Shown piece by piece: positions 3,092 to 52,138 of a stretch of 64,000 nt of DNA (the first letter of the stretch is position 1; every line of letters starts with the position of its first letter). The notes beneath the pieces are model-generated. The model saw only the letters and a program-made list of their open reading frames with translations, was not told the DNA's origin and ran no database searches. The DNA is from Octopus vulgaris. Lineage: Eukaryota. The stretch covers positions 202,678,001 to 202,742,000 of the forward strand of contig OX597814.1 in assembly GCA_951406725.2 (NCBI GenBank). Reading direction: 5' to 3'. A program made the position numbers and the translations under genes.

Positions 3092-3929
3092 TGAAGCTTC
3101 TGGAGTCATAGCACAGAGTTTTAAATGATTGAGGTAGGGAAGTAATGTGACAATATGTAAACAAATACCTATGAACAGATTGACATATTATTGACTATTG
3201 AAATTTGATTGGATACTGAATAAAAAGAACAAATAGTATGTTCCACACAGAAATTGTCACTCGCAGTAGAAATACGTTCTCTGCTCAATTGGATTAAACC
3301 CGACCCTACACGGTTGACAAGCAGTCTCTTCAACCACAAAGACATGCCTGTTCCTATGTCCACAGGATATCACTGAAAAAGTGAGTAAAACAGCAAACAA
3401 CTCGGTACAATATTTCCCTTTATTATTAACGTTGGATGAAATAATATATTGCAGTTATGTCTCTGCTATAATTTATCTATTGGTTACTACTGTCAGGCAG
3501 CCACTTTATATCGATTGGTTACTACTACCGTCAGGCAGCCACGGTGATGGAGTGAAATGACATGTACTTTACAGCTTCCCATTTATCTTTCTCCCTGTGT
3601 TTTTACGGCTTCTTGCTTAATTAGGAAATATTTTGGTTACCAAGTTATTGAAAGAATAACACAGCTAATATAAATGTTTGCCATAGTCATGTTTGGAATC
3701 TACTGTTCAGGGTCTCTTTGGTTGCTAGGCTGGGTGTGTGGTGAGGAATTTCGCTTTGTAACCATGTGGGTCTGAGTTCAGTCCTGTAGTGCAGAACCTT
3801 GTGTCTTTACTGGATTGGCTAAACTTTGTAAGAGGAATTTAATGGATAGAATCTATATGGAAGACTGCAGCCATGCTGGGGCAACTCCTTGAAGAAGTTT
3901 TAGTCGAATAAATTGATACCAGTAATTAA

Positions 3930-4244
3930 TGTTTGTAAGCCATTTAAGAAACACACAAAAGCCGTTAGATTCACTTCAACGTTTAAGTTTAATTTGTCAA
4001 AATATTTTCGTCGCTATAAGACCGCGACCTGTTCACTGACAAAAATCCGTGATGCAGCACGGATTTTTGTCAGTGAACAGGTCATGACGAAAATATTTTG
4101 ACAAATTAAACTTAAACGTTGAAGTGAATCGAACGGCTTTTGTGTGTTTCTTAAATGGCTTACAAACACCTTCCGCGCTGCAATTGTTTTCGTTCCAGCA
4201 CACAATCTCAGATCAAATCACTTGCTATGCAAGTACATCTCAGT
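3930..4244. mobile_element. fold-back Penelope-like non-autonomous element, family P1 (copy 1)
   Basis: Inverted arms ~3930-4054 and 4055-4169, centred on ccgtg(a)tgcagcacgg. Unique 3' extension to ~4244. Direct repeat cagtaattaatgtt at 3920-3933 and 4241-4254. Inserted in a SINE. Confidence 0.75.
3993..4043 (-). ncRNA. minimal type-I hammerhead-like motif with G3/C8 core (GUGAACA)
   Basis: Minus strand reads tttgtca-GTGAACA-g-gtcgc[ggtcttata]gcgac-GAAA-atat-T-T-tgacaaa: 7-bp stem I, 5-bp stem II, palindromic stem III AATATT. Confidence 0.6.
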
Positions 4245-4430
4245 AATTAATGTTACTGGCGCTTATTCTGTTGACCCCTTTAGCCAAACTGTTTGTTTGT
4301 GTTTGCTTGTTTTTGTTTGTTTGTGTGTGTGTGTGTGTAAACATCAAAGAGGGATATGAAATATGGGATATCAATCTATGATGTTAAAATATAATCCTGA
4401 AATAAATTTAATATTACAATACTTTCAATA

Positions 4431-4842
4431 AGGTGCAGGCATGGCTGTGTGGTAAAGTGCTTGCTTCCCAATCACATAGTTCCAAGTTCAGTCCCACTGC
4501 ATGGCACCTTGAACAGGTGTCTTCTGCTATAGCTCCAGGTCAATCAAAGGCTTGTGAGTGGATTTGGCAGATGGAAACTTAAAGAAGCCCATCGTATATA
4601 TATATTTATATATTTATCTATGTGTGTGTCTTTGTGTCTGTATTTTCCCCACCACTACCACTGCTTAACAACCAGTGTTGGTGTGTTTACATCCCTGTAA
4701 CTTAGTAGTTCTAAAAAAGAGATTGACAGAGTGCCAGGATAAAAAAAAACACTGTAGTCAATTCCTTCAACTAATAGTTTTTCTAGGCAAAGCCCCAGCA
4801 TGGCCACAGTCTAATGACTGAAACAAGTAAAAGATAAAAGAT
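4431..4842 (+). mobile_element. tRNA/CORE SINE family A (CR1-type tail)
   Basis: A-box tggctgtgtgg, B-box-like agttcagtccc, tail ccccagcatggccacagtctaatgactgaaacaagtaaaaga. Confidence 0.85.
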
Positions 4843-5377
4843 GATTAATTATTTTTTTAAATCATGTTTATCCCAATTTGTAAATAGATATGTAGTGGAC
4901 CAATCACTGGTTCATGCATTTCTGACATTTAGTGAAACAAGGGAACTTCTGTATAACTTGGTGCAGAACAAATATAAACAGGGATACTTTTTCTTTTCAA
5001 CAATCCCCCTTTAATATTTTTGACCTACTGAATATCATTTGTTCACAAACTGTGAGCTACAATTGATTTAAGATTAAAAATAAAAAATATTAAATTTGTC
5101 TTTGACGTACTAATGTAGTTCACAGTCTCTTGTGAACTACATTAGAAGTATTCTGATTTCAAAGTTATTTTAATAATATATATTAGCACAATGCAAGAGT
5201 GTCCCATATTTCTAAGTTCAAATTTCACTAGAGTCAATATTGTGATTCATCTTTTGAAAGAATCAGAGTAAAAATCAACTGTCCCACTACATTTGAGCTG
5301 AGCTCACTAGCTACACTTACAAAAATATACTAGTTTTACTATAAATGAGCTGAGCTCACTGGCCATACTAATAGTGA

Positions 5378-5590
5378 TTTCAAATTTTGGCACAAGATCA
5401 GCAATTTTGGGGGAGGGGATAAGTCGATTACATTGACCCCAGTACTGAACTGGTACTTATTTTATTGAACCCCAAAGGGTGAAAGGCAAAGTCAACTTTG
5501 ATGGAATTTGAACTCTGAACATAAAGACGGACAAAATACCGCTAAGTATTTTGCCCTGCATGCTAACAATTCTGCAAGCTCGTCACCTTA
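5378..5590 (-). mobile_element. SINE family B
   Basis: Matches the family B consensus (reverse complement). Confidence 0.75.
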
Positions 5591-5951
5591 CTAGTTTCAG
5601 AGTTGATTGGTCATAGTAATAGAGTATTATTAGAGCTGAGCTGAGATCACTAATCATACTTATAAAAAAGATCAAAGCAGTTTTTACTTCAGTTAAGCAG
5701 CTCTACTTATACAAAAAAAAAAAAATGTTTTACCAGAGTTATAGTTATAAATAAAAAAAAAAGCAATCTTTACTGTAGTTGAGCTGAGATCACTAGCCAT
5801 ACTTATTTAAAAGGGGAAATAGTTTTACTAACTTCACTGGCCATACATACATGTCACAGCCAAAAACTATTCAAGCCAAGGAAACCTCTACATAGTTGCT
5901 CAACTGACTAGAAATTATCTACTCTTGCTCAAATCACATTCCATGATCTTA

Positions 5952-6343
5952 TCTCTCTATATATAAAGCTGAAGTTGTCGGTGTATGGCAGGTTTAGTAG
6001 GCTTCAACTAACACTATCTCCTCCGAGACCCTGTGGCACAAGTTGACCAAAATTGAGAGTATGATAGAAGAAGGCTTGCTCTTTCTTCCGTAGAAGAAAA
6101 TATTCAAATCAGACCATGTTAACACCAAAGATTATTTACATCAAAAAGGTGCTTTTCTTCTATGAAAATCCCTATTTTTTACGATTTTTTTACTGCTGTG
6201 TCGTCATTTTTCGGTGTATTTCAACCAGAAAAAAGTTCACTTAAAGAGAATAACAAGATACATAATGCAAAAGTTTTACTTTTCAAAAATTCCAATTTTA
6301 AAGGGTTGAAACAAACCCGAGCAACACCGAGCGATACTGCTAG
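5952..6343 (+). mobile_element. non-autonomous Helitron
   Basis: a|TCtctctatatataaa ... aacccgagcaacaccgagcgatactgCTAG|t. 5' TC, subterminal hairpin, 3' CTAG, A|T insertion site, no TSD. Confidence 0.8.
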
Positions 6344-7502
6344 TAAAGTGATAAGGACATATTAAATGATGTAGTATTGTAAAAAGTTGAAATGGTTAAA
6401 GTTTTGACTTTGGGGGTTAGATAACCAACCATTATGACTCTGGTTCTTTGGTGCATTTTGCAGAGTTTACTTTATTGCATGCATTGAGACCAGGTTGAAA
6501 TATTAACTACATCTGTCTCATTGGTCTAGATGGGGATGAGTTAAGAGTTGTGCATTGCCCCTTCACCTTTCACTGACTAAGAAAGATAAAATGACCAAAA
6601 AAGAACATTAGTTTTGGCCATTGTCAATAAGATCTCGTTATTTACACTTTATTAGCTAATTGTTACGCCAATAGTTTGTTGAATTGATTTGTAAGTCTCC
6701 AATCACTGACTGTTCCTATCTATAACCACCCTAAATCACTCCTGATCAATATTCTTGTTTAGTTAACCTTTATATTAAGTGCCTTCATTCTTGAGCCATT
6801 TCAGAAAATCTCTGTCCCCCACCCTCACACACCACAACTGTTCTTCTCACTGATCTTTTTAAGCTAGACATCTAATTTAAGTGCTTACTCATCCATCATT
6901 AATTAATTTACAGTTCATTAAATTAAAGCTTGGAAATCACTTTTACTTTATTTGTTATATATATAGATGTAGGCGTAGCTGAGTGGTTAAAAAGTTTGCT
7001 TTGCAGCCCCATGGTTTCAGGTTCAGTTCCAATGCATAGCATCTTAGATAAGTGTCTTCTATTATAGTCCTGGGCTGATAAAAGCTCTCTGAGTGAATTT
7101 GTTAGACAGAAACTGAAAAAGAAGCCCATCACCTGTGTGTGTGTGTGTGTGTGTGTCTCATTGTTGACAATTAGTATGTTTTGTCAAGGTAAACATTACT
7201 GTTGTACAAATTGGTATTGTTTCTTTGCAGTCATGCATGAAAAATTATCCAGACAAAAGGAAAATGTCAACTAGTTTGAGGGCAACAGAATGCAAATGTG
7301 ACAAAAGAAAATGTTCCTCAATTAATTTTATCAGCCCCAAGCAAACATGAAAAAGTAGGTTAAAATGGCAACAATAATGATGATGATGATGATGGAGGCT
7401 GTGATGATGATAATTATAATAATGATGATGTTGATGATGTGTTATCCATTGATTTAAAAAAAACTGAGATATAATATTCAATCAGCTTGAACAGTATCAA
7501 TA

Positions 7503-7905
7503 AGAGCCGGTGTGACTGTCCGGTAAGAAGTTTGCTTCCCAACCAGATGGTTCCAGGTTCAGTCCCACTGCACGACACCTTGGGCAAGTCTTTTCTACTC
7601 TAGCCTCAGGCCAACCAAAGCCTTGTGAGTGGATATGGTAGACAGAAACTGAAAGAAGCCCATCGTATGTATGTATGTGTGCATGTCATTGTGTCTGTGT
7701 TTGTCCTCCACCCCACTAGCTAACAACTGGTGTTGGTGTGTTTACATCCCCCCCAACTTTGTTGTTTGGCATAAGAGACTGATAGAATAAGTGCCTGGCT
7801 TTGAAAGAAAAATACTGCGGTTGATTCAGTTGATTAAAAAAATTCTTCAAGGCTGTGCCCCAGCATGGCCACAGTCTAATGATTGAAACAAGTAGAAAAT
7901 AAAAG
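7503..7905 (+). mobile_element. SINE family A
   Basis: Full head, CORE-like block and tail. Confidence 0.85.
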
Positions 7906-11320: not shown

Positions 11321-12347
11321 ATTTAAGTAAAATTATTTTTGTTATTAAATGTTGTTCACTCATAAACGTTGCTTCACTACTGCTGCTGCTGCTACTGCTA
11401 CTACTACTACTACAATTACTACTACTACTACTACTACTATTACTATTATTACTACTACTACTTCGTTCTTAGTTTGTTGGAGCATTTGACTTTATTTGAA
11501 ATAATTTCAAAGAATTACTACAACATAAATACCAAATAGCTGATGAAGTGATGATTCTGCAGGAAATTGGTAAATTCCTTTCATTCAAATTCTTCAGATA
11601 TGTCTACTATTAGAACTACAAAGTTTCTACAGAAAGGGAAACCACCAATCCCTCTGCTTGAAATAATAGGCAAATCTCCCTCAAATCACACTGTACTCTC
11701 TTCAAACCAGGAGGGATACATTTGCTAATGTAGTTCTAGATATATTAAAATAAGATGGTCATGGATGGAATGCCTTTGACCATAGGTCTACTTGATCTGG
11801 ACTGACATGAGTTCAAGCAACAACAACAATTAGAGCAGCTATGTTTGAGTTCAGTTGGTCAACACAACAGAAAACAACAGTTTTTAATCTTTTGTGACTG
11901 AAGGTGGTGTCTTGTTGAGGTCAGTTTTTCCTGTAACCATCCAGAGTTCTGTATACCTTTTTTGTATTTGGGTAGATTTATTTCTATATTGCCCACAGGA
12001 AGCTAAACATAGAGGGGGGCAAACAAGGAGAGACAAAGGGATTAAGTCGATAACATCGACCCTAGTGTGTAACTGGTACTTATTTAATCAACCCCGAAAG
12101 GATGAAAGGCAAGGTCAACTTCAATGGAGTTATACTCCTGGGAACACCAGAGTTCAATTCCTTGCAATTTCATTCACATGGTTCCAGTTTACCTGGGGCT
12201 ATCATAAAAGACACTTCCTCCAAGATACCTCACAGTGAGACTGAACCTGTGACTTCATGACTGCCAAATGAACTTTTAAGTCATTTAGCCATAAAGATTA
12301 TTTTCTTCTTTTTTTTTTTTTTTTTTGAGAAAAAAAATTATATATAA

Positions 12348-12654
12348 CAATTGCAGCGTGGAAGGTGTTTGTAAGCCATTTAAGAAACCCACAAAAGCCG
12401 TTCGATTCACTTCAACATTTAAGTTTAATTTGTCAAAATATTTTCGTCGCTGCAGCACGGATTTTTTGTCAGTGAACAGGTCGCGGTCTTATAGCGAGGA
12501 AAATATTTTGACAAATTAAACTTAAATGTTGAAGTGAATCAAACGGCTTTTGTGTGTTTCTTAAATGGCTTACAAACGCCTTCCACGCTGCAATTGTTTT
12601 CGTTCCAGCACATGATCTCAGATCAAATCACTTGTTATGCAAGTACATCTCCGT
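12348..12654. mobile_element. fold-back Penelope-like element family P1 (copy 2)
   Basis: Same sequence as 3930-4244. Arms join at gctgcagc. TSD aattatatataa at 12336-12347; the right copy is split by a Helitron. Confidence 0.8.
12465..12515 (+). ncRNA. G3/C8 hammerhead-like motif (copy 2)
   Basis: tttgtca-GTGAACA-g-gtcgc ggtcttata gcgag-GAAA-atattt-tgacaaa, with one stem II mismatch. Confidence 0.55.
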
Positions 12655-12656
12655 AA

Positions 12657-13024
12657 TCTCTCTATATATAAACGGCAGTTTGTCTCTGTGTGTTTCTGTG
12701 TGTCTGTTAGGTTGTACCCTCACCCTGACCACGGCTTTCAACCGATTCTGATGAAACTTGACACACACATAGCCCAATGTCATAATTCAAAACTAACGCA
12801 GCGAAAATTTTGAAAAGTTCCCCCAGTTCTGAAAAAAATCGATAAATTCGACATGGGGTCGAGAATCAGAAACACAAACCACAGACTGTCTAGGGGACGC
12901 AACTCGACCTTTTTAACTAAAAAAAATTTACCATTTTTTTTTCCATTTTTTGGCTATAACTCTCTAAAAATGCTTTATAGTTATTTCCCTTACAAACCCG
13001 AGCAACGCCGGGCGATACTGCTAG
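12657..13024 (+). mobile_element. non-autonomous Helitron
   Basis: a|TCtctctatatataaacggcag ... cccgagcaacgccgggcgatactgCTAG|t. Confidence 0.85.
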
Positions 13025-24640: not shown

Positions 24641-24729
24641 TAGTGATGGTCGTGGTGGTGGCGGCAGCAGCTGCTGCTGCTGTTGTTGTTGTTTTTCCTC
24701 CGTCTTCCTTTTCTATTGGACTTTCTTCT

Positions 24730-24765
24730 GTTTCTGAAGAAGAGCTTTGCTCGAAACATTAGCGT
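24730..24765 (+). ncRNA. hammerhead-like motif in a Penelope-like 3' end (canonical CUGAAGA core, decayed stem I/III)
   Basis: CTGAAGA-a-gagc[ttt]gctc-GAAA-ca-TT. The element ends in (TA)n at ~24845. Confidence 0.55.
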
Positions 24766-24856
24766 CTGCTAATACTTTACATGTACCAAGTCCTCGCGTT
24801 GTTGTTTTTTTTTAATGTTTGTTGTTCATTTCTTTTGGATTTTATATATATATATA

Positions 24857-25005
24857 TATTGTTATATTTCGGAATGGTCATTTTGCCAGTTTAGCCAATA
24901 AAAACACACGCACTATATATTTGGTGTTATTTATTTTTTGCATTAATCTTAATCGTATTTCTATTGGCTAAACTGGCAATATGACCATTCCGAAATATAA
25001 CAATA
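24857..25005. mobile_element. MITE with ~44-bp TIRs in TA context
   Basis: tattgttatatttcggaatggtcattttgccagtttagccaata and its reverse complement (1 mismatch) at 24962-25005. Confidence 0.8.
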
Positions 25006-25075: not shown

Positions 25076-27044
25076 CATCATCATCATCATCATCGTTTAA
25101 CGTCCGTTTTCCGCGCTAGCACGGGTTGGACAGTTTGACCGGGGTCTGGGAAGCCAGGGGCCGCTCCAGGCTCCAGTCTGATTTGGCAGAGTTTCTACGG
25201 CTGGATGCCCTTCCTAACGCCAACCACTCCGTGAGTGGATTGGGTGCTTTTTACGTGCCACCTGCACAGGGGCCGGGGGGTCCGGCATTGGTCGCGATCG
25301 GTTCGAGCTTTTTAACGTGCCAGCGGCACGGGGGCAACTGGGTCCGGGGTACTTTGGGGATCCGGGGTACTTTGGGGATCTGGGGTACTTTGGGGATCCG
25401 GGGTACTTTGAATGGGTAGGGGGTATGTGGAATTGCTGCAGAAAGCAGCCCGGGTTTTTGCAGTCACAGCATATCTCCAGAGATCTCGGTCTTTCGCCAT
25501 TGCCTCAGTGAGGCCCAATGCTCTGAGGTCATGCTTGACTACCTCATCCCATGTCTTCCTGGGTCTACCTCTCCCCCTGATACCTTCAACTGTTTGGGAG
25601 TGGCACTTCTTCACACATCTCTCTTCATCCATCCGCAGCACATGACCATACCATCGCAAGCGTCGCTCTTGCACACCACATCTGATGCTTCTTATGTCCA
25701 GCATTTCTCTTAGGATGCTTACACTCTGTCTTGCGTGCACACTGACACTACACATCCAGCGGATCATGCTAGCTTCATTTCTTTCAAGTCTACACATGTC
25801 CTCTGCAGTCACTGCCCATGTTTCATTACCGTGAAGCATGGCAGTTCGCACACATGCATCATACAATCTACCTTTCGCTCTGAGGGAGAGACCTTTTGTT
25901 GCCAGTAGGGGTAGGAGCTTTCTGAACTTTGCCCAGGCTATTCGTATTCTAGTGGTGATACTTTCTGTGCATCCACCTCCGCTACTAACTTGGTCACCCA
26001 GGTAGCGGAAACTATCAACTACTTCTAGTTTCTCTCCCTGGAGTGTGATGGAATCTGTTTTCTGAGTGTCTGTTATGTCTATTGTCCCTGTGCATCTGCC
26101 GCACATGAAAGCTATCTTATCTGTTAATTTCCCTTTAATGTTGCTGCATCTCTTATGTGTCCATAACTTACATTGGGTGCATCTTATGGAGTTTCTACCT
26201 GTACCTTTCCTACAGATTGAGCAGGGCCACCTACCCGAGGGGGTGTGTGCTGAGTACCTCTTGCTGCTTACTAATACTTTGGTCTTTGCTACATTTATTC
26301 TAAGGCCCTTTGATTCCAACCCTTGCTTCCACACCCGAAATTTCTCTTCTAGTTCCGGTAGTGATTCTGCTATGAGAGCTAGGTCATCGGCATAGAGGAG
26401 CTCCCAGGGGCATCCCGTTTTGAATTCCTCTGTTATTGCCTGAAGGACTATGATGAATAAAAGGGGACTGAGGGCTGAGCCCTGGTGCACACCTACTTCT
26501 ACCCGGAATTCTTCACTATATTCGTTGCCAATCCTAACCTTGCTGACAGCCTCTCTGTATAGAGCCTGTACAGCCCTTATTAGCCATTCTTCAATCTCCA
26601 GTTTCCGCATCGACCACCAGATAAGGGAACGGGGAACCCTGTCAAAGGCTTTCTCCAAGTCTACAAAAGCTATGTAGAGGGGTTTATCTTTAGCTAGGTA
26701 CTTCTCCTGCAGTTGTCGGACCAGGAATATAGCATCAGTGGTGCTTCTACCTGGTACAAAACCGAACTGCATTTCATCTAAACAAATTCTCTCCCTAATG
26801 AGATGGGTTATGACCTTCTCTGAGACCTTCATCACCTGGTCCAACAGTTTGATACCTCTGTAGTTATTTCTATCTAGAGCATCACCCTTACTCTTGTAGC
26901 AGTTGACTATGGTGCTGCTGCACCAGTCATTGGGTATGACTCCATTGTGAACTACCTGGTTTACAATGCGGGTGACTATGGTATAGCCCACATAGCCAGC
27001 TGTTTTAAGCATCTCAGCAGTGATTCCTGATAGGCCAGGGGCTT
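25076..27044 (-). mobile_element. RTE-clade LINE, 5'-truncated, with (GAT)n tail
   Basis: RT ORF plus 3' UTR ending gttaaacgatgatgatg next to (TA)n. Confidence 0.95.
25312..27044 (-). CDS. RTE reverse transcriptase (partial ORF, open frame) with inserted C4HC3 PHD-like finger
   Basis: KAPG..ITAEMLK, NYRGIKLL, QFGFVPGRSTTDAIF, FVDLEKAFDRVP, GVHQGSALSPLLF, LLYADDL, FRYLG, RRLRWYGHVLRM..RGRGRPRKTW. The first ~56 aa of the ORF-track protein come from the palindrome. Confidence 0.92.
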
Positions 27045-27370
27045 TAACATAAGGGACTAAAGCCATCTGGATATGGCTAGGGACAGGGCAGGGTGGTGGG
27101 GGTGTTACTGTTGCATTTAGCCCCAGGCGAACATCAACGTCGCCAGATAGACTTGACACCATCACGGTGTCCTTTATCCTGCAAAGGGAGATAATTCCCC
27201 GATGAAGCTTCATCGGGGAATTATCTCCCTTTGCAGGATAAAGGACACCGTGATGGTGTCAAGTCTATCTGGCGACGTTGATGTTCGCCTGGGGCTAAAT
27301 GCAACAGTAACACCCCCACCACCCTGCCCTGTCCCTAGCCATATTCAGATGGCTTTAGTCCCTTATGTTA
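27045..27370. repeat. spacerless 326-bp palindrome (2 x 163 bp, 1 mismatch) at the RTE 5' junction
   Basis: Centre gatgaag|cttcatc at 27207/27208. Arms end at taacataagg (27045) and ccttatgtta (27370). Confidence 0.95.
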
Positions 27371-28686: not shown

Positions 28687-29139
28687 CTATATGTCTTATG
28701 TATGTCACTGTTTTATAGCATATATGATCTTTAAGCAACTTCAGTATATATCACTATTTATAGTTTCCAAAGTCCTTCAATATCTTCTGTTATACCACTG
28801 GTTTACAACAGGTGATGTCTTTAACCTTTCTGATATCAACCCACTCAAAACTACTCCCTCTTCTATGAAACCAATTCTCTCAAAATTAAAACCCTCCATC
28901 AAAAGTTTTGGGTTAATTTATGTTTCAAACACTGACATAATACCAACCAGGGTATTTTCCTAATTTCTTCATTATTTTTCAAAATTGTAATTGAAATAAA
29001 GACAGTGTACTTCACCAGAAAAACATGAACAAAAGTGTTAAGCAACTTCTGTATAATACTATTTATAGCATACAATATCTTGAGATATCTGATGTATATC
29101 GTCATTTTACAGCATACACTGTCTGTAGACAACCTATAT

Positions 29140-29352
29140 ATATACTACTGTCCTTCTCGCGACTGACCACTGTCAGACACGCATTTTTTTCTCTCCTTGT
29201 TTTTTTCTGTGTATCTTCCTGTCGAAGAGCATAGGCTCGAAACGTAAAAGACTTTTTCTATTTCTATTCCTGAGCGCTATACTAATACATTTGTTTGTTT
29301 GTACTCCACCTGCCTTCGTCTTTTGTTTATTTTCGTAAACCTTCCCGTTATA
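29140..29352 (+). mobile_element. Penelope-like 3' end family P3 with hammerhead-like motif
   Basis: CTGTCGA-a-gagc[atag]gctc-GAAA-cg-TA-aaaga at ~29219-29251. (TA)n on both sides. Other copies at 39283-39462 and 41396-41543. Confidence 0.65.
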
Positions 29353-32544: not shown

Positions 32545-33373
32545 CTTGTCAGAAGGCCTCCAAGAAAGTGAAACTATCCATGTTACATGATAAAAACAGT
32601 GAGGTTTGGGGGTAAAAGTCTAATGCTGTGGGGATACATAAAAAGTGATGGTTCAAGAAATTTGGTTAAAATTGACGCAAACTTGAATAGTGCCAAATAA
32701 ATGCAGTTGCTGAAGGACAATTTGATACCAGACTTGGAGGAAGGTGAGATTTTTCAGCATGATGAGACTCCATGCCACAGATTGCAGACAACACAACAGA
32801 GACTGGCTAATGAAGGTGTTATTGCATTGAAAGAATGGCCAGCTCAGAGCCCTGACTTAAATATCATCAAGCAAATGTGGACAGAACTAAAGAGGAGGGG
32901 TTGTCAGAAGAATCCACGCAATCTTGAAGGATTGTGGGAGCTCAGCCACAGAGAATGGCATCTCATACCTGTGAAGATGGCAAAGGATTTGTACACATCT
33001 CTTCTCAGGTACATGGAAGCAATTATTCAAGCAAAGGGAAGCCACATGAAATATTAATAATGTACAGTAACTTCTTGAAATGCACATTGTGTAATAAGTT
33101 TTCATTATAGACATTTCTAAAACACTGTATCTTGATTGGTTTATGTGAGGTGGGCAAAAACATTTGCATAGCCATTTTTGGTGGTTGTCTTGCTTCTTCC
33201 TCTCTCGTTCAGAACCCCTACTCTACAAAATATAATGATCAGAAATGGAAATGACTTTGACAGGGCCAATGTTTCATCTATAAAATATGCAATGAGAAAC
33301 AGCCACTTGTATGTTGGCAATTAGTAGAAATTTACAAAAATTTGAAGTCACCGAAAACTTTTGCACGGTACTG
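32545..33373 (+). mobile_element. Tc1-family DNA transposon 3' remnant (transposase pseudogene + right TIR)
   Basis: VMLWG-like segment, IFQHDETPCH, EWPAQSPDLNIIKQMW, IIQAKGSHMKY. Ends aaacttttgcacggtactg|TA, a CAGT-type TIR. Confidence 0.85.
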
Positions 33374-33443
33374 TATATATGTATGTATGTATGGGTATGT
33401 ATGTATATATATATATATATATATGTGTATGTATGTATGTATG

Positions 33444-33474
<31 letters not shown>

Positions 33475-33744
33475 ATATATATTTATATATATGTATATAT
33501 ATATTTATATATATGTATATATATATTTATATATATGTATATATATATTTATATATATGTATGTATATATATATTTATATATATGTATGTATATATATAT
33601 TTATATATATGTATGTATATATATATTTATATATATGTATGTATATATATATTTATATATATATGTATGTATATATATATTTATATATATATGTATGTAT
33701 ATATATATTTATATATATATGTATATATATATGTATATATGTGT

Positions 33745-33820
<76 letters not shown>

Positions 33821-34190
33821 GTATATATATGTGTATATGTATGTATATATATATGTATATATATGTGTATATGTATGTATATATGTGTATATGTATGTAT
33901 ATATATGTATATATATGTGTATATGTATATATATATATGTATATATATGTGTATATGTATATATATATATGTATATATATGTGTATATGTATATATATAT
34001 GTATATATATGTGTATATGTATATATATATGTATTATATATATGTGTATATGTATATATATGTATATATATGTGTATATGTATATATATATGTATTATAT
34101 ATATGTGTATATGTATATATATATGTATATATATATGTATGTATATATATATGTATGTATATATATGTGTATATGTATATATATGTGTAT
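33374..34190. repeat. (TA)n/(TATG)n compound microsatellite
   Basis: Directly visible. Confidence 0.97.
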
Positions 34191-37066
34191 GATTGATTGA
34201 TTGATTGATTGATTCTAGTTTCAGCTCATGAGCTGTGGCCATGCTGGGGCACCGCCATTTGGTGTTGCTACTTGGTTTCACTTCATGGAGGCTTTCTGGC
34301 AACTGCTATTTGGTGCATGAGAGAGTTCGATGCAGCTGCCCTCATCTGCCCCTCCTGCCGTGAAGTTGGTTCATCTGGGACACCTGACAGGAAGAGATCG
34401 AGCTTCATTTTAAAGACATCTGTATCCACCCCATGCAGGTCTCTCAGGTTCTTCGGGAGGATATTGAAGAGCTGTGGGCCCTGGAAGCCCAGGCTATCAC
34501 AGAATCTTGTCCTACATCTTGAGGGCAGGTTTGGAGTCCTAGGCACCACGCAGTGGCGCCCAGTTCTGGCATTTGCGTAACTCTCGATGCCAAAGTTCAG
34601 GACACTTCCCTCCAGGATCTTCCAGATGTATATTATGGCATATCTTTCCCGCCTACGCTCCAGGGAATATAATTTTAATCTCTTGAGTCTTTCCCAGTAG
34701 CTTACATTCTGCATAGAGGCTATCTTCTTTGTGTAGCTTCGTTGGATTGCCTCAAGTTCTGTGATCAACTTGACACTGGATGGTGACCATAGCTGAGAGC
34801 AATAGTCAAAGTGGCTTAGGACAAGTGTCTTCCAGAGGACCATCATGGTTTCTTGTTCTCTTGTTCTAAAGGTTCTAAGAATCCATCCAGCCAGCCGTCT
34901 ACATGTCATTGTCAGTTTAGCAACATGTACATGAAAGGTCGCGTCATCACTCATGTGAATACCCAGGTCACGCACTGATTGTGCCTCTGGGATTGCAATC
35001 CCTCCGGGTCCAGTGTATTCATTGGGTATTGCATTCAGTTTTGCATGCTGATAGTATAAAGCTTGAAACTTTCCAGCATTGAACTGCATGCTATTCTTTT
35101 CAGCCCACTTGTATATTTCGTCCAGCTCACATTGCAGGTGTTTAGTGTCCTCAGGGTTCTGTATTGCCTGTGAGACTTTTGTATCATCTGCATAACTTGT
35201 GATCGTGGCTCTCTGCGTGGCTGAGGGCATGTCTGAGAGGGCCATTATGAACAGTAGTGGTCCCAGAACAGTGCCCTGCGGAACACCGCTCACTATTTGT
35301 GTGTTAATAGAGGTGGCCCCATTGGCTACTACCACCTGACTTCTATCCTTCAGAAAGTCATGAAGCCATTCTCCCAGTTTTCCAACTATGTTGAGATCAC
35401 GCAGTTTGTGACATATCATTCCATGATCGACTTTATCAAAGGCCTTTGCAAAGTCGAGATATATCACTTCCACATTTGAGTGGTTGAGCAGCCGTTTCAG
35501 CACCCAGTCATAGTGTTGTAGGAGCTGAGTTAAACAGCTTCTCCCTGGTCGGAAACCATGTTGGGTGTCGGGCAGCAAGTCATTCTCTTCAAGGAAGGTG
35601 ATCAGCTTCCTTCTGACTATTCGTTCCATGACCTTGCTGATGTGTGAGGTCAGAGAGATAGGTCTATAGTTCTTGGCTTCCGCTCTGCTACCTCCTTTAT
35701 GAATGGGGCATATTTTACCTTCCTTCAGTTTTCCTGGAAGTTTGCCAGCTGCAAGGAAGCTCTGAAAGAGGAACTGCAGTGGTCTTGCTAGGACTCTCTT
35801 ACATGCTTTTAGGAGGATTGCCGGGAATCCATCGGGGCCAGTAGCTGAGTCTGTTTTCATTTCATCTATAGCCTTGGTTACATCGTCTTCCTTTATATCG
35901 ATGTAATCTATCGTCGCCGCCTCTGATTTTATATCTGCAGTGGTAAAAAAGTCAGTTGGATTGGTGATTTGGAGATGCCCAAGGGGTGGAGTGAAAACAC
36001 TCTTGAATTGCTCATTCAGTATTTCACTTACCCTCATTGGTTTTCCTGTAAGTGTGCCATCCTTTTCAAGGAGTGGCCCTATTCTACAGTGCACTGTAGC
36101 TGTTTCTTTGGCATACCTGTAGAAAGCTCTGGGGTTAGATTTTATGTTTTCTATAGCCCAGGCTTCTTTGTCTGCTCTTTCTTTTTCATGGGAGAGTTGC
36201 AGACATTTTTCGATTTCCAACAGTTTTATTTTTAGGCGGGACTTTTCACTGCTTTCAATCTGTTTGTTTAGGCGATTTGAAAATTTCGTACGCCGTCTCA
36301 TTAAAATTTTCCTCTCTCTGGGGATTTTGTTCTTGTGTACAGTGGCCTTTCTCTCTGGGACACATTTGTAGCATATGGCTTGCATTACAGACATGAATTG
36401 TTGAAGTTTCACGTCGATGTCTGGCGAGGAGAGACATTCAGGCCAGTTTTGTTTGAGGATCTCTTTCTCAATTTGTTTCCAGTTTGCCTTATGGTAGTTC
36501 AAGCTGGAAAGATTTTGAGGGTTTCTTGTAGGCTGCATGTCCGTGCTCTCTTTTGGCCCGTACATGGTCAGCTCTATCATGTTGTGATCCGAGAGTAGTG
36601 TCGGTGTCACTTTCACATTATGGATGAGATCCATGTCATTTGTGAAGCAGAGATCCAGTGTGTTACCTGCCCTGGTTGGTTGGAGTATTACCTGCTCCAT
36701 GTACAGGGTGTTGATGAGGTTCAGGAGGGACCTCGCCTGTCCTCGTTCACATCTTGTCATTCCTGGGAGAGAAAGGCCCTCGGGCCATCTGACATTGGGC
36801 AGATTGAAGTCTCCCATAAGAAGCACACCTATGTGTTGTTCTAATGTGGTTAGAATTTCTTCTATTTTTATAAGGCAGTCTTCGAACTTACCCACATGGC
36901 TTGGGGCATCTGGAGGGCGATATGTAGCACACACAACTACATCAAGTTGCCTAATATGTACAATTAGTGTGTCACACACCGAGTTTGAGTATGACAAGAG
37001 GACCTGGGGTGTGAGGTCCTCACGGATGTACATAGCAACACCTCCATGACTCCTTTCTTTCCTGTC
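34191..37066 (-). mobile_element. CR1-group LINE, 5'-truncated within the APE domain, with (AATC)n tail
   Basis: ORF2 plus a short 3' UTR with hairpin cagctc-at-gagctg and tandem aatc tail. Confidence 0.93.
34283..37066 (-). CDS. CR1-type ORF2 (AP endonuclease + reverse transcriptase), ~927 codons without a stop, N-terminally truncated
   Basis: [100 protein letters not shown]. Confidence 0.93.
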
Positions 37067-38522
<1,456 letters not shown>

Positions 38523-38524
<2 letters not shown>

Positions 38525-38949
38525 TAATAATGACAATAATCCTTGGGTGGAATTTATAAACATTTAATGCATTGCTACAAGGGGTTTCCACATATTACAT
38601 GTATCTTAAGACCACATTCTGGAATGATCACAGTGTAGTCCATAGTATCCATGGGCATCTGGTTGATCATTTTCATGGATTCATTTCTTCAGGCGATATA
38701 ACATTAATTGATATACAACAGAGTGATGCTTATCCTTTTTGACCAGTGAGGAGGTTTATTGACTTGTATTGCCTGAAGAAATGAACCCATGAAGATGATC
38801 AACTCGCTGCCCATAGATGCTACAGACCCCACTGTAGTTATTCCAGGAATACAGACTGTGATCTTAAGAGACATGTGATTCATGGAAAGACATGTAGCAA
38901 TGCATTGAATGTTTATAAATTCCATCCAAGGATTATTGTTATCACTACT
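38523..38949. mobile_element. old fold-back element (family P4) with a hammerhead-like motif in each arm
   Basis: Imperfect inverted arms ~38523-38702 and ~38762-38949. Right arm attgc-CTGAAGA...GAAA-gacatg-TA-gcaat. Confidence 0.7.
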
Positions 38950-39139: not shown

Positions 39140-39282
39140 TCATTCAGAATTCGAGAAAGCAATATCCACATAAGGGATTGTTAAAAATATTCCTTATGCC
39201 AACTGGGTTTAACCAGATATATTGATAGGAAGATCATTAATATATATATTAATGATATATATCAGTTGCCATGATAGATCGT

Positions 39283-39462
39283 TAGCCACTACACACATTT
39301 TTCCTCTCCTTGTTTTTTCTGTGTCTCTTTCTGTCGAAGAGCGTAGGCTCGAAACGTAAAACACTTTTTCTATTCCTGAGTGTTATACTAATACATCTGT
39401 TTGTTTTGTACACCACCTGTCTTCGTCTTTTGTTTTTTTCGTAAACTCTCCCGATATATATA
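39283..39462 (+). mobile_element. Penelope-like 3' end family P3 (copy 2)
   Basis: tcttt-CTGTCGA-a-gagcgtaggctc-GAAACGTA. Ends in (TA)n. Confidence 0.65.
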
Positions 39463-41075: not shown

Positions 41076-41395
41076 TTTCTGATTTGAAGTGTGTGTGTGT
41101 GTGTGTGTGTTGATATATGGTATTGGGAAAAAGATTAAAATGGCACTTCCCATCTTTAATCATTGCCTCTGTTGTTGATATTGTTGTTGTATCTGTATCA
41201 TTGTGTATTTCTGGAGTTTTTGTAAGTAGTGTTGTTTGGTGTTTCTCGGAGCACAATTTTGAGCGGCTGTGGGTTTTGTTGGTCTAGGGTCGTATTTGTA
41301 TTATTATCATTATCAGGTACAAGCACAGCTGTTTGGTTTTAAAAGTTGGCTTCTCAATCCACATGGTTTCAGGTTCAGTCTTACTGTATGACAGT

Positions 41396-41543
41396 TTCTC
41401 TCCTTGTTTTTTCTGTGTCCCTTTCTGTTGAAGAGCGTAGGCTTGAAACGTAAAAGACTTTTTCTATTCCTGAGCATTATACTAATACATCTGTTTGTTT
41501 TGTACACCACCTGTCTTCGTCTTTTGTTTTTTTGTAAACTCTT
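41396..41543 (+). mobile_element. Penelope-like 3' end family P3 (copy 3) nested in a SINE
   Basis: cttt-CTGTTGA-a-gagcgtaggctt-GAAACGTA-aaag. Flanked by the direct repeat cttactgtatgaca (41380 and 41541). Confidence 0.65.
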
Positions 41544-42832
41544 ACTGTATGACACATTGGGTAAGTGTTTTCTGGGCCAACCAAGAAAGCCTTTAGCTTC
41601 TGAGTTCAAATCCTGCTGAGATCAACTTTCTTTTTGATCCTTCCCAGGTCAATAAAATAGAATACCAGTCAAGTACTGGGGTTGTTGTAACCAACTAGGC
41701 CTCCACCTCTTCCAAATTTCAAGCCTTGTGCATTTTATAAATAGAATTATTATTGATATTATTATGTTTTCAGACTAAGATGTTAATGCATGTATACCGA
41801 CAAGCAAATAATATCAAGATTTTCAAGTAAATTTCTTCAATAACACGAATTCATCTCTACCTACAATAACCTTCTACTTCATTCATTTTTTATACACCGT
41901 CAATTTATTGCAGATACAAACCACAACTTTTAAAAGCTATTCATTGTATTTATTACTGTCACCCAGAATATTCCCCACCCCCCAACCCCCGCCTTCCCAT
42001 TTAATCTCTGGAAGAAAACTTTCACAAAGCTCTTGAAATCGAAATCATGTATAATGTTTCTTTATAGAAGTTTATGTAAATATATTCTTACGTTTTAGCA
42101 ATTACTCTGATACATATGCTTTTAAGTGATTTTTTTTTTCTTCCTTGTTATCTTTTAAAATTTCAACTTGAAATTTTCTTATTGTGAAACATCAAATATT
42201 GGCAAGACAATACAGAGTTATTTCCTCTTGGATTTATTCCTCTATGAGAAAAGAGATGTGGTAGTAGTGGTGGTGGTGATGGTGGGACATGTTTTTTTTT
42301 AAATTCTGATTGCCCTTGAATAAGTAAACTTATTGTACAACAGCATTCCAACTATAATACAACAATCCTATACTTTTTAAAAAATCTTTTTGCCAGACAC
42401 AGTATATCTAGAATCACATTATTTCACGTCTGCCTCACCCTCATATTTTTTTAAGATGTTAAGACATTATATAAAGGAAAATTGGCTGCTATTTCTAGCA
42501 GAGCAGTTGATAATGTCAGAACTTTGCAATAGGCCCGAGATGTGTGTGTGTGTGTGTATGTGTAAATTTTGGTTCAGTTTTCTGTATTTAGATCTGCTTG
42601 AGAAGAAGACCCATCAAGCCAAGTAAAATCACAGCCATGGCAGATACTGGTGCCACGCAAATGGCACCTGTGCCAGTGTCACATAAAAGCACCCATTACA
42701 CTCTCAGAGTGATTGGTGTTAGGAAGGGCATTCAGCCATAGAAACCATGCCAAATCAGACTGGAATCTGGTGCAGCCTTTCAGCTTGCCAGCCCCGGTCA
42801 AACTGTCCATGGACAACATGATGATGATAATG

Positions 42833-46509: not shown

Positions 46510-47040
46510 ACTGCACAAGTTGTCTCAAGAGAAGAAATTCTCCTCATGGTGTCTCTTCAGAGACACCAATTCTCAGCGGAGTCACACAGGGAACTGTACT
46601 GAGGCCACTACTATTTGTGGTGGCCCTCTCAAACATGCCCTCCACAGTGCAGTCAGCTAATCTGACCAGTTATGCTGATGACACAAAAGTATCGCAGGCA
46701 CTGAGGAACCCAGAGGACATCATAAAACTGCAGAAAGACCTGAATGAAATTTATAAAGGGGCTGACAAAAATAACATGCAGTTCAATGCTATGAAATTTC
46801 AGGCACTCCACTTTTGATCTAACATCAGGCTAAAATTGGAATACACTGGACCAGAAGGTAATATGATCCCAGAGTCTAAGTCAGTGTGTGACCTGGGGTT
46901 CAAATCAGTAATGATGCAACATTCCATGTGCATATTACTAAGATGGCAACACTGTGCAGGCGAGTGGTTGGCTGGATTCTGAGGACAATCAGAACCAGGA
47001 AAAGGGAGGCCCTGCTACTCCTATGGAATACTTTCGTTTC
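46510..47040 (+). pseudogene. CR1-group RT fragment related to the 34-37 kb element
   Basis: [45 protein letters not shown], then stops. Confidence 0.85.
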
Positions 47041-47113
47041 AGGGACATAAACATACCAGCATTGGTTGTCAAGTGATGTTGGGGGTGACAAACACAGACA
47101 CACAAACACATAC

Positions 47114-47146
<33 letters not shown>

Positions 47147-47709: not shown

Positions 47710-47945
47710 ACCTATTTCTTTACTACCCACAAGGGGCTAAACACAGAGAGGACAAACAAGGACAGACAAACAGATTGAGTCAATTGCATTGACCCCAGTG
47801 CGTAACTGGTACTTAATTTATCGACCCCGAAAGGATGAAAGGCAAAGTCGACCTTGGTGGAATTTGAACTCAGAATATGACGGCAGACGAAACACGGCTA
47901 CGCATTTCACCCGACATGCTAACGATTCTGCCAGCTCGCCACCTT
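47710..47945 (-). mobile_element. SINE family B
   Basis: Near-consensus reverse complement. Confidence 0.85.
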
Positions 47946-47960
47946 TTCCATCGTAACTAC

Positions 47961-48320
47961 CTTGAACAAAGAAAGGAATCGTTGGATGATGTAGTTCGTA
48001 AAAAGACATGATTGTCACAGATAGAATACATTTGATCATTGGTTTGCAGAATCCAAATTAATATCAGGCTAAAAACTACCACCATAGCAGAGTCATCTCT
48101 TTTTAATAACATTCGAGTGAGACTCACATTCCTCTCCCTGCCTACATATTTTCTGTAGATTCGAAACTGTTGGTCAGTTCCTGTATCAGTAACATTAACA
48201 TCTCGCCATTCTGAGAAGAAATGAGTTACAAAGGTCATCTCCACTGGCTCTTCTCTTGACCATGTTATTAAAGAAAGAAAATAAAAGAAGCTTGGCTTTA
48301 TTACAACATTTAAAGAATAG
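47961..48320 (-). other. candidate host exon with a signal-peptide-like start
   Basis: Non-repetitive. Acceptor-like tctttctctttcccaAG at 48321-48322 and donor AAG|GTAGTT at 47960. Encodes MLLKRDDSAMVVVFSLILIWILQ... No recognisable homology. Confidence 0.25.
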
Positions 48321-49437
48321 CTTGGGAAAGAGAAAGATGAAAATATATTCTTTCTAGTAACTAGTAATGTGTCACGAACTTACCCCCTCAGTCACTCCTC
48401 AGAGACATTAGTGAATAATAATTATTATAATATAGAGTAATTATTAAATAATAATAATTACAAAGTATAGTAATTACACATCATAATAAAATTTAATTAT
48501 ACATGTTTCTAATTCACTCTTAATTTTAAGAATTAGAATGAAGTTTTGTTTCTTTCTATATAAAAACATTAATAACTTTAAGATAACTCTGCTTATTAAC
48601 CATAGATTATTTTATAAAGAGGATTAACTGTTACTACAAAATTTGATGAACATTTAGTTATACTGAATGGTAAGGATTCTTTTCTCTTTTGCTTGTGTTT
48701 TTGTTCGTGTTTTTTTTTTTGTTTTACTGAATATTTTCTGTTAGAAAAATGTTCAAGCCTATACGAGTGAGTCTTTTCAAAGTGGCATTTTGAAATGAGC
48801 TACAAAGCTTTAAATTCTCTGGAACTTGTTATTTTGATTAAAGATACTTATCTGAAACACATAATCAATACACTAATAATACTAGACATTCGGAATTGCT
48901 CTTATTAAATAATTTTCGATGAAAGCTTGTTCGATATTTCTTAATAGACTTTAATGATTAGTTGTATAATTCACTTTTGAAAGAGAGCTACTAATAAAAC
49001 TCTGCTGGTGATGTTAATCTGATTCTTAAATTATAGCCTGAAATTAGTTAGTGAGAACGAAGATAGTTATCAGTTGCATGAAATATTCGGTCTTCTCTTC
49101 TTTGGTATATTTTTTATTGATTAATATATCTTTTAAATAGAATGGCAGATCATGCAGGCATGTGTGTTAGGGTGGGCGTGATGGTGGTTGGATATATTGT
49201 TTGAGAAGATAAGCAACTGGAGTTCCAGGTCTAGGATAATGAGTTTGTATTCTGCTCTTACTCTTAATTCTTCTTCAGTGGCCATATTGTCATGCAGTCT
49301 TCAATGTTATCCCTTTTTTTTTTTTTAGTCTAAATGATGAAAACAAATAAGGGATTTTAGAGAGCAGAGCCACCCTTACACATTAATTACAATCTTCCAT
49401 AGGTTACCTAGCCATTGACAAACTAAATATATGGAAG

Positions 49438-50241
49438 CTGTAGTTCTCAAGTGGGGGGTCCATATAAGATTTTGTTGGGGTCTACATAAGCCAAATAGTA
49501 AATTGGTATCCACAGTATTATCAGTATTATTTAAACCCTTTCATTACTGTATTTCTTTTGAAATGCTTTGTGTTCTTTTCAATTACTTTAAATATAACAA
49601 AGAATTTAGTAAGATAACTTAGTTGTCATTCAGCTAGTGTTAGGAACATAAATTGTGACTAAGTTTTTGGTGGAAGATTTTAATTCAAAACTTATGAAAA
49701 CAAGACATTTGTACTCGGAACCAGAGGCGGTTTCAGTCGGGTTGGTATCAAGAGTTAAATTAATCATTTGTTAACCCTTTTGTTACCATATTTATTTTGA
49801 GATGCTCTGTTTCTTTCAATTACTTTAAATATAACAAAGAATTTAGTAAAATAACTTAGTTATAATTAAACTGGTGTTAGGAACATAAATTGTGACTAAG
49901 GTTTGGTGGAAGATTTTAATTCAAAACTTATGAAGACAAAACAAATGTACTCAGAGCCAGTGGCAGTTTTGGCCGGGTTGGTAATGAAAGGGTTAAGAGT
50001 CCATGAAAAAAATTTGCTATAGATATATTTATTGTAAGAAACAGCTAGGTTTCTTTCTCTAATGTTTTACATAGTTCAAACTACATAAGTGAATGTGTGA
50101 TAAACAGAATAGGAATTTTGAAAGAAATATGTATAAAATTAAACTTTAAGGATTAAAAGGCTACGGGGCAGAGCCACCAGAATAAAATAGTAATCAAGAA
50201 ACTCATAGATAAAAAAACAAAAAAACAGTTGAGAACTACTG
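49438..50241. mobile_element. hAT-type non-autonomous element with nested piggyBac-type MITEs
   Basis: ctgtagttctcaa ... ttgagaactactg TIRs. Related copy at ~61514-61760. Confidence 0.65.
49535..49992. mobile_element. two tandem piggyBac-type MITE copies
   Basis: Second copy TTAA|cccttttgttacc ... ggtaatgaaaggg|TTAA (49775-49992). First copy ~49535-49754. Confidence 0.75.
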
Positions 50242-50703
50242 TACTATATTATAGATCTATTTCAGCTGATTTTACCAATCAGAATGAGATAATTAGTATG
50301 TTTTCCTTACCAGCCCCTCTGATGAGTGCTGTCTTAGGTTATCACTCAATTACCTAATTCAGGCACAAAACTGATTGGTAAAATCGGCTGAAATGGATCT
50401 ATAATACTATTGTATGAATATTGATATATCCATTCTATTGACAAATATACGAGTGCTGCCTTTTTCCAGACTTATGGATTCTCAGCTCTCTCTCTCTCAT
50501 ATATATTTGTGTGTGTGTGTGTGAGATTGATTTAATATTATCTGAGTAATAACCTTATAGCATGCTTTCCAAAGCTGCTCCACAGGTATTGGCTACCAAA
50601 TGCTTTCTCTTAATATACATATGAAAATCCATGAGTATCTATAGAGTATATACCAAACAATTTTGATATATGAGAAGATGGAATGAACATGCTTTATTAC
50701 AAA

Positions 50704-50824
50704 TCACTACAATTGTTTCAGTGCACCATTATCAGCTGGTAATTGCTGAATGTTACTTATATTATATGCAATATTGCATTAATATGATCCAACAATAGCA
50801 GCATACATGCATGTCTTCAGGTGA
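50704..50824 (-). ncRNA. hammerhead-like motif with extended stem II
   Basis: Minus strand tcac-CTGAAGA-c-atgca[~85 nt]tgcac-t-GAAA-caattg-TA-gtga, followed by AATAAA. Confidence 0.55.
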
Positions 50825-50875
50825 GAAGGATCCAAAGCACTGCTAGAACATCTTTAGTTTCTCATTGCTTTTTTT

Positions 50876-51270
50876 GCATAGAAGTGGCTGTGTGGTAAGT
50901 AGCTTGCTTACAAACCACATGGTTCTGGGTTCAGTCCCACTGTGTGGCACCTTGGGAAAGTGTCTTCTACTATGGCCTCGGGCCGACCGAAGCCTTGTGA
51001 GTGGATTTGATAGACGGAAACTGAAAGAAGCCCGTCGTATATATGTATGTGTATATGTTTGTGTGCCTGTGTTTGTCGCCCCAACATCGCTTGACAACTG
51101 ATGCTGGTGTGTTTACGTCCCCGTAACTTAGTGGTTCGACAAAAGAGACCGATAGAACAAGTACTAGGCTTACAAAGAATAAGTCCTGGGGGTGATTTGC
51201 TCGACTAAAAAAGGTGATGCTCCAGCATGGCCACAGTCAAATGACTGTAACAAGTAAAAGACTAAAGAGT
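50876..51270 (+). mobile_element. SINE family A
   Basis: Near-consensus copy. Confidence 0.9.
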
Positions 51271-51530
51271 ATATATCTTACAGGTAATAAAACACAATGT
51301 ATTTCACATTGATCACACCTGTAGAGGAAAACTAAAGCGACCAACAGCAGGAGTGAGTGACAGTGAGAGATGCTAAATGCAGGTGAACAATAATACTTTC
51401 AACCAAGATGTTACAACTGTACCTGATTGTTCAATGTTTCACTTCTGGATATGTTTATTCAGTTGCTGAAATTTATCATTTGTTTCTCTCACTGATTTGA
51501 TGTGCCACTTTTTTTAACATTAATAAGACT

Positions 51531-51925
51531 TTATTTACCTTATTTACATTTGACGGATAATGTAAATCATCGTCATCATCGTTTAACGTCCGTTCTCCAT
51601 GCTAGCATGGGTTGGACGGTTCGACCGGGGTCTGGGAAGCCAGGAGGCTGCACCAGGCTCCAGTCTGATCTGGCAGTGTTTCTACAGCTGGATGCTCTTC
51701 CTAACACCAACCACTCCGTGAGTGTAGTGGGTGCTTTTTACGTGCCACCAGCACAGGTGCCAGGGGAGTCTGGCAGCGGCTATGATCAGTTGGTGCTTTT
51801 AACGTGCCACCAGCACGGAAGCCAGTCAGGGTGGCGCTGGCATCAGCCACGTTTGGATGGTGCTTTTTATGTGCCTCCGGCACAGATAATGTGCATAATT
51901 CCTCATCTCTCAAATATAGAACTGT
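51531..51925. mobile_element. fold-back family P2 element with a nested RTE-tail repeat (51568-51884)
   Basis: ttatttacatttgacggata ... cctcatctctcaaatatagaactgt. TSD attaataagact at 51519 and 51926. Confidence 0.7.
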
Positions 51926-52084
51926 ATTAATAAGACTGTCTACATTTTTGACAACATGGATATGCTAGTATATATATATATTATTTATATATATAAAGGC
52001 CAGCATGGAAAGTGAATGTTAAATGATGATGAAATGTTCCTACTCATTTTGTATATGTCTGCATCCTGTTGGAGATAGATGAAA

Positions 52085-52138
52085 ACAATTGCCATGCTGA
52101 TGATGCCTATTGAGGCAGAAACATGTTTCAGCAATTGT
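52085..52138 (+). ncRNA. hammerhead-like motif (canonical CUGAUGA/GAAA)
   Basis: acaattgc-catg-CTGATGA-tgcct[attg]aggca-GAAA-catg-TT-tca-gcaattgt. Confidence 0.5.

Follow-up and report, generated by a model that had tools for sequence, protein, structure and literature searches.

Hammerhead motifs in the window

The window analysed here is a 64,000-nt stretch of the Octopus vulgaris genome (assembly GCA_951406725.2, 2.8 Gb in 227 contigs; contig OX597814.1, positions 202,678,001 to 202,742,000) that is AT-rich and abounds in short repeats and (TA)n tracts. A first-pass annotation had placed 12 type-I hammerhead ribozyme motifs in it and ascribed them to non-autonomous, non-coding retroelements. 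We describe these sites as copies of seven repeat families, A to G, which are very probably the pseudo-long terminal repeats (pLTRs) of several families of Penelope-like elements (PLEs). Positions are counted from the first letter of the window.

A strict descriptor built on the CUGANGA core found no site in the window, as had been predicted of such searches, and an Rfam scan of the window gave no hammerhead at E ≤ 10, solely microsatellite and hairpin microRNA noise. A relaxed descriptor, accepting any Watson-Crick 3-8 pair, any base at position 6, optional extra bases and a palindromic stem III, passed three of the 12 claimed sites, two when stems had to reach 4 bp (4036 on the minus strand, 41425 on the plus strand) and a third when 3 bp sufficed (39331, plus strand). 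Run over the whole window at 4/4 bp, it returned three matches, one of them unclaimed and chance-like, against 0.13-0.25 matches per shuffle (maximum 1) and one match in the reversed control. All 12 sites nevertheless hold a motif or a decayed copy of one: most of the copies are damaged, and two to three are intact.

Three sites belong to family A (3993-, 4066+ and 12465+). The first two lie in a fold-back pLTR insertion at 3920..4254, whose left arm is without the 3′ tail and whose right arm has it, with a 14-nt direct repeat at 3920-3933 and 4241-4254. Its minus-strand motif at 3993..4043 is intact, with a 7-bp stem I, the core G3-U-G-A-A-C8-A9, an extra G and a 5-bp stem II (G3 at 4036, GAAA with G12 at 4009, an AAUAUU palindrome, U17 at 4000), and pair probabilities are mostly 0.87-1.0; the plus-strand motif at 4066..4106 has lost loop II. 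The third site lies in a plus-strand fold-back unit at 12346..12660, in which the motif (12465-12515) carries C11.1 changed to G and the inverted arm consists of the 3′ half alone. Family B accounts for sites 29214, 39326 and 41420, all on the plus strand: a 3′ end of a reverse transcriptase (RT)/GIY-YIG element at 29177..29349, with the U6 core CUGUCGA at 29219 and a mismatch in stem I; a copy at 39270..39462 with a U6 core at 39331 and a 3-bp stem I; and a copy at 41379..41554 whose motif is near-intact (CUGUUGA at 41425, A17 at 41452), with a 15-nt direct repeat at 41379-41393 and 41540-41554.

The remaining families are represented by decayed copies. Family E (site 24730) is found at 24692..24830 on the plus strand, with canonical CUGAAGA at 24734, a mutated, broken palindrome, a deleted stem I′ and a tail related to that of family B. 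Family C (sites 38571- and 38768+) forms a fold-back at 38524..38948 with cores at 38692 (minus) and 38773 (plus); stem II is 7 bp, set off by an A.G mismatch and with ~90 nt inserted, and stems have decayed in both copies. The family D copy (site 50311; 50247..50406, plus strand) has CUGAUGA at 50319, G12 changed to A at 50367 and a short inverted arm. The family G copy (50704..50825, minus strand) has CUGAAGA at 50820, a long stem II with decayed stems, G12 at 50719 and the palindrome ACAAUUGU, and the family F copy (52085..52138, plus strand) has canonical CUGAUGA at 52097, G12 at 52118 and decayed stems I and III.

The inverted-arm units of the first-pass annotation were confirmed at four places (3930-4247, 12346-12657, 38524-38948 and 50247-50406). 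Its statement that many units have target-site duplications of 12-14 bp was borne out in part: the duplication is clear in two of eight window units checked (14 nt at 3920/4241 and 15 nt at 41379/41540). Among 22 family-A copies, two have a non-simple repeat of at least 8 nt, and eight sit in (TA)n, where a duplication is unreadable.

Seven repeat families

When each site was used to search the genome, seven repeat families emerged, the number of first-look candidates per family ranging from 154 to 3,097, and other genomic copies of every family restore the type-I hammerhead layout with a palindromic stem III. The expectation of at least six unrelated repeats was borne out in number, except that families B and E have a 3′ tail in common (by eye) and are related. 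At family level, stems I and II around a core with a Watson-Crick 3-8 pair, GAAA and UH are found in A, B, E and F. The CUGANGA core is present in C, D, E, F and G and absent from A (GUGAACA) and B (U6).

Family A combines a 7-bp stem I with the core GUGAACA, an extra G, stem II GUCGC/GCGAC, GAAA, the palindrome AAUAUU and U17. Family B has the core CUGU(C/U/A)GA, an extra A, a 4-bp stem II, the palindrome ACGU and A17; family E is the same except for A6, and shares the palindrome ACGU. Families C and G have canonical cores and a stem II offset by a 10.1-11.1 mismatch with ~80-90 extra bases inside, D has a canonical core and a long, variable loop II, and in F the layout is canonical and retrozyme-like, stem I being 6 bp long. 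The non-standard features named in the first-pass annotation (G3-C8, U6, an extra base after A9, a long stem II) are all confirmed at family level. The family G palindrome is ACAAUUGU; those of C (ACGCGCGU-type), F (ACACGUGU-type) and D (ACCGAUUGGU) come from copies affected by CpG decay or wobble. Some copies of D swap stem II from GUGC/GCAC to GCAC/GUGC, most D copies being decayed, and RNAalifold gave little or no consensus structure for the decayed families.

A scan of ~2 Mb of fetched loci, partly family-selected, found ~130 distinct motif strings versus 6 in the reversed control. Further hammerhead families are present in these loci, several with a 30-60-nt loop II and an 8-12-nt palindromic stem III, as are at least three distinct U3-A8 types.

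Linkage to Penelope-like elements

Longer copies of families A, B and C run directly into RT/GIY-YIG frames ~0.4-1.2 kb upstream; these three families are therefore not separate non-coding elements, contrary to the first-pass description, whose proposal of a PLE connection is upheld. Three of 30 family-A copies have common upstream sequence, which led to a GIY-YIG-like frame and from there to a young subfamily that has a 998-aa open frame and whose copies are alike at 92-99% over kilobases. The encoded protein matches Pfam GIY-YIG (E 1.6e-5), contains a YVDD motif and, by BLASTP, matches (2e-9) a protein of the same genome that has Pfam RVT_1 and GIY-YIG. The family-A motif lies downstream of the open reading frame (ORF) in all 20 loci, 1,006-1,160 nt from a C-terminal landmark in the 19 measured. 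The defined 3′ extension noted in the first-pass annotation exists, and such tails belong to the published PLE insertion pattern. In family A the extension is the ORF start: it comprises the first ~30 codons, continues in frame in one locus (L295), and has its ATG 56 nt 3′ of the predicted cut site. In family B, RT/GIY-YIG frames lie 574-793 nt upstream in three of five measured loci, and in family C RT-like and GIY-YIG-like frames with weaker scores lie upstream in L334 and L336. On this evidence at least three families (A, B and C) are pLTRs, the ends of autonomous PLEs. Judged by motifs and layout, and not by a tree, A would be Penelope/Poseidon-like, B Neptune-like and C Nematis-like.

Families D, E, F and G are likely PLE ends too; ORF fragments near their loci are on the other strand, downstream or unlinked. 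These four, and some of the short A copies, may be non-autonomous. The PLE-type copies observed are 5′-truncated, inverted or tandem, with an optional 3′ tail, and a tblastn search of the window found no PLE ORF remnant.

An abundant GIY-YIG family with 781-aa frames was considered as the parent of the window families and rejected, its own motif being U3-A8. Matches to B, E and A beside its loci looked like separate insertions and not linked ends, and a 470-nt stretch shared upstream of two E copies is a different common repeat. The 781-aa family is itself very young (L211-L230), with many intact RT/GIY-YIG frames (e.g., L213:1942-4284), a long, internally repeated 3′ untranslated region, and a hammerhead motif of the U3-A8 type (UUGAUAA), located near 5090-5183, in ORF orientation, in L219 and L212. 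Elsewhere, locus L021 (contig C30:3801084-3804239) contains at least five head-to-tail family-B 3′ ends with (TA)n between them. The sequence upstream of the family F hammerhead (L510-L539) gave 1,070 candidates versus 154 for the hammerhead part, and most of its copies end before the motif.

Variant cores

The G3-C8 pair is found in 76 of 77 sampled family-A copies and in all nine distinct ORF-linked copies, and the exact 15-nt half-core of the family occurs 7,336 times genome-wide versus once for a control. In a more diverged family-A subfamily, two copies keep stems and core with loop II and flanks changed, and two others have core mutations. A search for the family-A 5′ stems with canonical C3-G8 gave 13 matches versus 1 in the control; nine of the 13 bear the matching stem-II 3′ strand, which was absent from the search pattern, and one (L563) matches the stems of family A throughout. 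All 72 cells pair in an alignment of these nine look-alikes with three family-A copies, in which the 3-8 change is partly built in by the search pattern and from which four motifs without a clear 3′ half (L553, L556, L559 and L564) were excluded. The C3-G8 look-alikes are older than the young, ORF-bearing family A. Other families of the genome have U3-A8 cores. The B-type pattern has 19,415 matches genome-wide, and among the first 100, counted by eye, position 6 is U in 92, A in six and C in two.

Ends of short family-A copies

The 5′ ends of family A were read in 88 distinct copies drawn from the first 100 of 4,841 anchor hits in chromosome order, a set in which fold-backs count with both arms and one pair is probably a duplicate. 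Within -4 to +3 of the A in TC-A-GATG lie 31 of these ends, with 47 further 3′ and 10 further 5′. This corresponds to 0.176 ends per nt in the 8-nt interval versus 0.004 upstream and 0.0055 downstream; just 3′ of the hot spot there is a shoulder at 0.022 per nt. None of the 88 starts at the predicted cleavage site, and three start within 3 nt of it. All eight copies ending exactly at the hot-spot A are preceded by G. The 3′ ends are clustered at three sites.

The base before the start was read in a separate sample of 100 short A copies, from which long copies were excluded by pattern and which was used solely for this purpose. AGA is kept in 51, and the preceding base (by eye) is G in 26, the templated C in 17, A in six and T in two; a script count over the first 30 loci of the sample gave nine G and eight C. 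When a short A copy was used as query, 27 of the 30 top matches started at the same site, mostly with a loop-II variant seldom seen in long copies. The sharp start, the frequent extra G and the absence of ends at the cleavage site suggest that capped, uncleaved RNA was the template. Copying of the cap as G is known from the biology of long interspersed nuclear elements (LINEs). Spliced-leader trans-splicing was considered as the source of the junction and rejected because no common leader lies upstream of it. A literature search on untemplated bases at PLE 5′ ends gave nothing relevant, judged by title. Contigs of four presumed-RNA runs contained no GT..AG joint into the acceptor-like site described below; such contigs cannot show ends, and this result was counted neither way.

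Other repeats in the window

A near-perfect, GC-rich palindrome at 27045-27370 has 163-bp arms of 99% identity, and no hammerhead was found in it; its origin may lie in a fold-back insertion or in an assembly artefact, and it is the source of a sub-threshold MIR158 match. A short terminal-inverted-repeat element resembling a miniature inverted-repeat transposable element follows directly on the family E copy and the adjoining (TA)n, at 24860-25002; in both B and E the family sequence stops immediately at (TA)n. The stretches 33250-34200 and 37067-38522 are long (TA)n/(TATG)n arrays, and the family C fold-back abuts an array. Two repeats of ~214-240 nt, 87% identical, stand head to tail at 49534-49983, and related copies lie at 1160-1382 and 28884-29041. 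Two dispersed repeat pairs are in opposite orientation: 25639-25951 with 54962-55259, LINE fragment-like by eye, and 34872-35302 with 46563-46986.

Proposed mechanism, alternatives and significance

We read the sites, with considerable confidence, as pLTRs of several PLE families whose minimal type-I hammerheads are predicted to be slow, dimeric or protein-helped. Published work reports that minimal PLE hammerheads cleave weakly and as dimers only (PMC4209133), that inverted arms with tails are the PLE insertion pattern (PMC8557442, PMC11167929), that Penelope has an internal promoter (PMC2377424), and that PAc, a lizard PLE, uses internal priming, an unprocessed RNA template and protein-assisted cleavage, with a C3G/G8C double change partly restoring activity (PMC11167929). 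The family-A end pattern fits the in vitro results for PAc and the internal promoter of Penelope (PMC11167929, PMC2377424). Transcription of family A would start within the pLTR at TC-A-GATG; the element protein would prime reverse transcription at a small number of positions shortly after the ORF start, and the hammerhead, still uncut, would be copied through up to the capped 5′ end, where G would be added. The cDNA would often fold back, giving ~150-210-nt solo and inverted units such as those of the window, and most inserted copies would then decay. Family-A stems I and II are predicted to fold with high probability, and any cleavage is most likely slow and dependent on a dimer or a protein.

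Several observations weigh against parts of this reading. Pfam RVT_1 gives no match to the family-A protein, and no complete pLTR-ORF-pLTR tandem was recovered. Upstream extension, proposed in the first-pass annotation, reached RT/GIY-YIG frames in A, B and C; for D, E, F and G, each followed in 30 loci and F in a further 30 upstream loci, it gave no linked ORF. The search for the C3-G8 relatives had itself required that pair, and blastn found no homology beyond the motif. Stem covariation across copies was also asked for there, and family-A stems never covary among their own copies. The family-A palindrome duplex is very weak (-0.2 kcal/mol). At the 5′ ends, the templated C is kept in 17 of 51 copies where others have G, some of the preceding G's may come from the inverted arm, and the hot spot resembles a 3′ splice site (CTAAC...TTTCTCAG).

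The last point underlies a doubtful alternative, that the sharp 5′ end of short A copies marks the 3′ splice site of a pLTR intron and not a transcription start. The branch-point-like CTAAC, a pyrimidine tract and an AG exactly at the hot spot fit an acceptor, and the Penelope intron of D. virilis ends at helix I (PMC4209133, PMC2377424); yet no common exon-1 sequence lies upstream of the junction, the ends scatter from -4 to +3, and several retain TCAG or CTCAG, which splicing would remove. The main rival to slow cleavage, which we think unlikely, is that the variant motifs derive from hammerheads and are non-catalytic, persisting as a folding, promoter or protein-binding element of the pLTR. 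The activity of G3-C8 is partial in engineered cases (PMC11167929, PMC8495972), the natural position-6 change A6C is slow (PMC3088659), insertion in vitro is unimpaired by hammerhead mutants (PMC11167929), Naiads thrive without canonical hammerheads (PMC8557442), and the genomic copies here would derive from uncut RNA. Against a relic stand the 3-8 pair, which in this genome takes three forms (C-G, G-C and U-A), all of them Watson-Crick, and the core bases, palindrome and non-G at position 17, which are kept while loops vary.

It is improbable that the short units are independent, non-autonomous ribozyme retroelements, retrozyme-like or resembling short interspersed nuclear elements (SINEs), that amplify themselves via circular RNA. 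The missing ORF links of D, E, F and G, the retrozyme-like layout of F with its 6-bp stem I, the shared start and loop-II variant of 27 of 30 short-A matches and the one head-to-tail family-B array would suit such elements, but families A, B and C continue into ORFs, none of 88 ends lies at the cleavage site, and copies are mostly solo or inverted, unlike tandem retrozyme repeats (PMC7229834). A chance origin of the motifs in AT-rich, palindrome-rich repeats, with which the empty Rfam scan and the unclaimed window site passing the descriptor would agree, is extremely improbable and is refuted at family level by the G3-C8, U6 and C3-G8 counts given above; family copies restore full stems and palindromes, distinct motif strings far outnumber the reversed control in loci that are partly family-selected, and the motifs are located where PLEs are known to carry hammerheads.

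The pLTR reading bears on the role of hammerheads in PLEs, an open question, as cleavage is slow and dispensable for insertion in vitro. The G3-C8 family (more than 7,000 copies), its C3-G8 look-alikes and the U3-A8 families form a natural allelic series on whether selection keeps catalysis. Searches with CUGANGA descriptors or Rfam pass over motifs by the tens of thousands in this single genome. The 5′-end pattern gives a simple origin for short "solo pLTR" repeats, which can be mistaken for SINEs. More tentatively, active PLE families could have tuned their hammerheads down via rare cores (G3-C8 with an extra G; U6), such that the RNA stays uncut during reverse transcription and is cut only when the element's protein pairs two copies, and capped transcripts starting in the pLTR could be copied whole into thousands of SINE-like, re-transcribable 210-nt units.

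Comparison with known systems

The closest counterparts are the pLTR hammerheads of metazoan PLEs (Cervera & De la Pena 2014, PMC4209133), which share the type-I layout, the extra base after A9 and the palindromic stem III, and also occur as thousands of mostly solo copies, with opposite-strand pairs and a U3-A8 variant. They differ in that the alignment rows covered contain no G3-C8 or U6 core, in that their consensus after A9 is H (not G) where family A has G, and in lacking, in the parts of that paper covered, the ~80-90-nt stem-II inserts and the 10.1-11.1 mismatch of families C and G. Poseidon PAc of Anolis (Frangieh et al. 2024, PMC11167929) resembles family A in a pLTR that overlaps the ORF start, in having several 3′ ends (the tail), and in an unprocessed RNA template without ends at the cleavage site, the template here being the presumed one. 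PAc has C3-G8, with G3-C8 as an engineered rescue, whereas here G3-C8 is natural; its ATG lies inside stem II (PMC11167929), whereas that of family A lies 3′ of the cut site.

Metazoan non-long-terminal-repeat retrozymes (Cervera & De la Pena 2020, PMC7229834) are likewise short type-I hammerhead repeats with long target-site duplications, and family F resembles their canonical motif. Unlike retrozymes, families A, B and C are ORF-linked and mostly solo or inverted, with ends off the cleavage site (PMC7229834). Absence of an ORF and ribozyme-delimited tandem monomers, which define a retrozyme, are not features of A, B or C.

The hammerhead class, the extra base after A9, the palindromic stem III, the opposite-strand pairs and U3-A8 are already published. 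Lünse, Weinberg & Breaker reportedly described in 2017, by the title of their paper, small PLE-linked hammerhead variants that cleave as dimers, and these may already include G3-C8 or position-6 changes. Engineered G3-C8 cases aside, the literature covered, from which that 2017 paper and part of the supplement of PMC4209133 are missing, yielded no natural core with G3-C8 or U6. Apparently new are a young, ORF-bearing family in which the G3-C8 core is fixed and whose stems are shared by older C3-G8 look-alikes, and U6 in most copies of a group of 19,415 matches.

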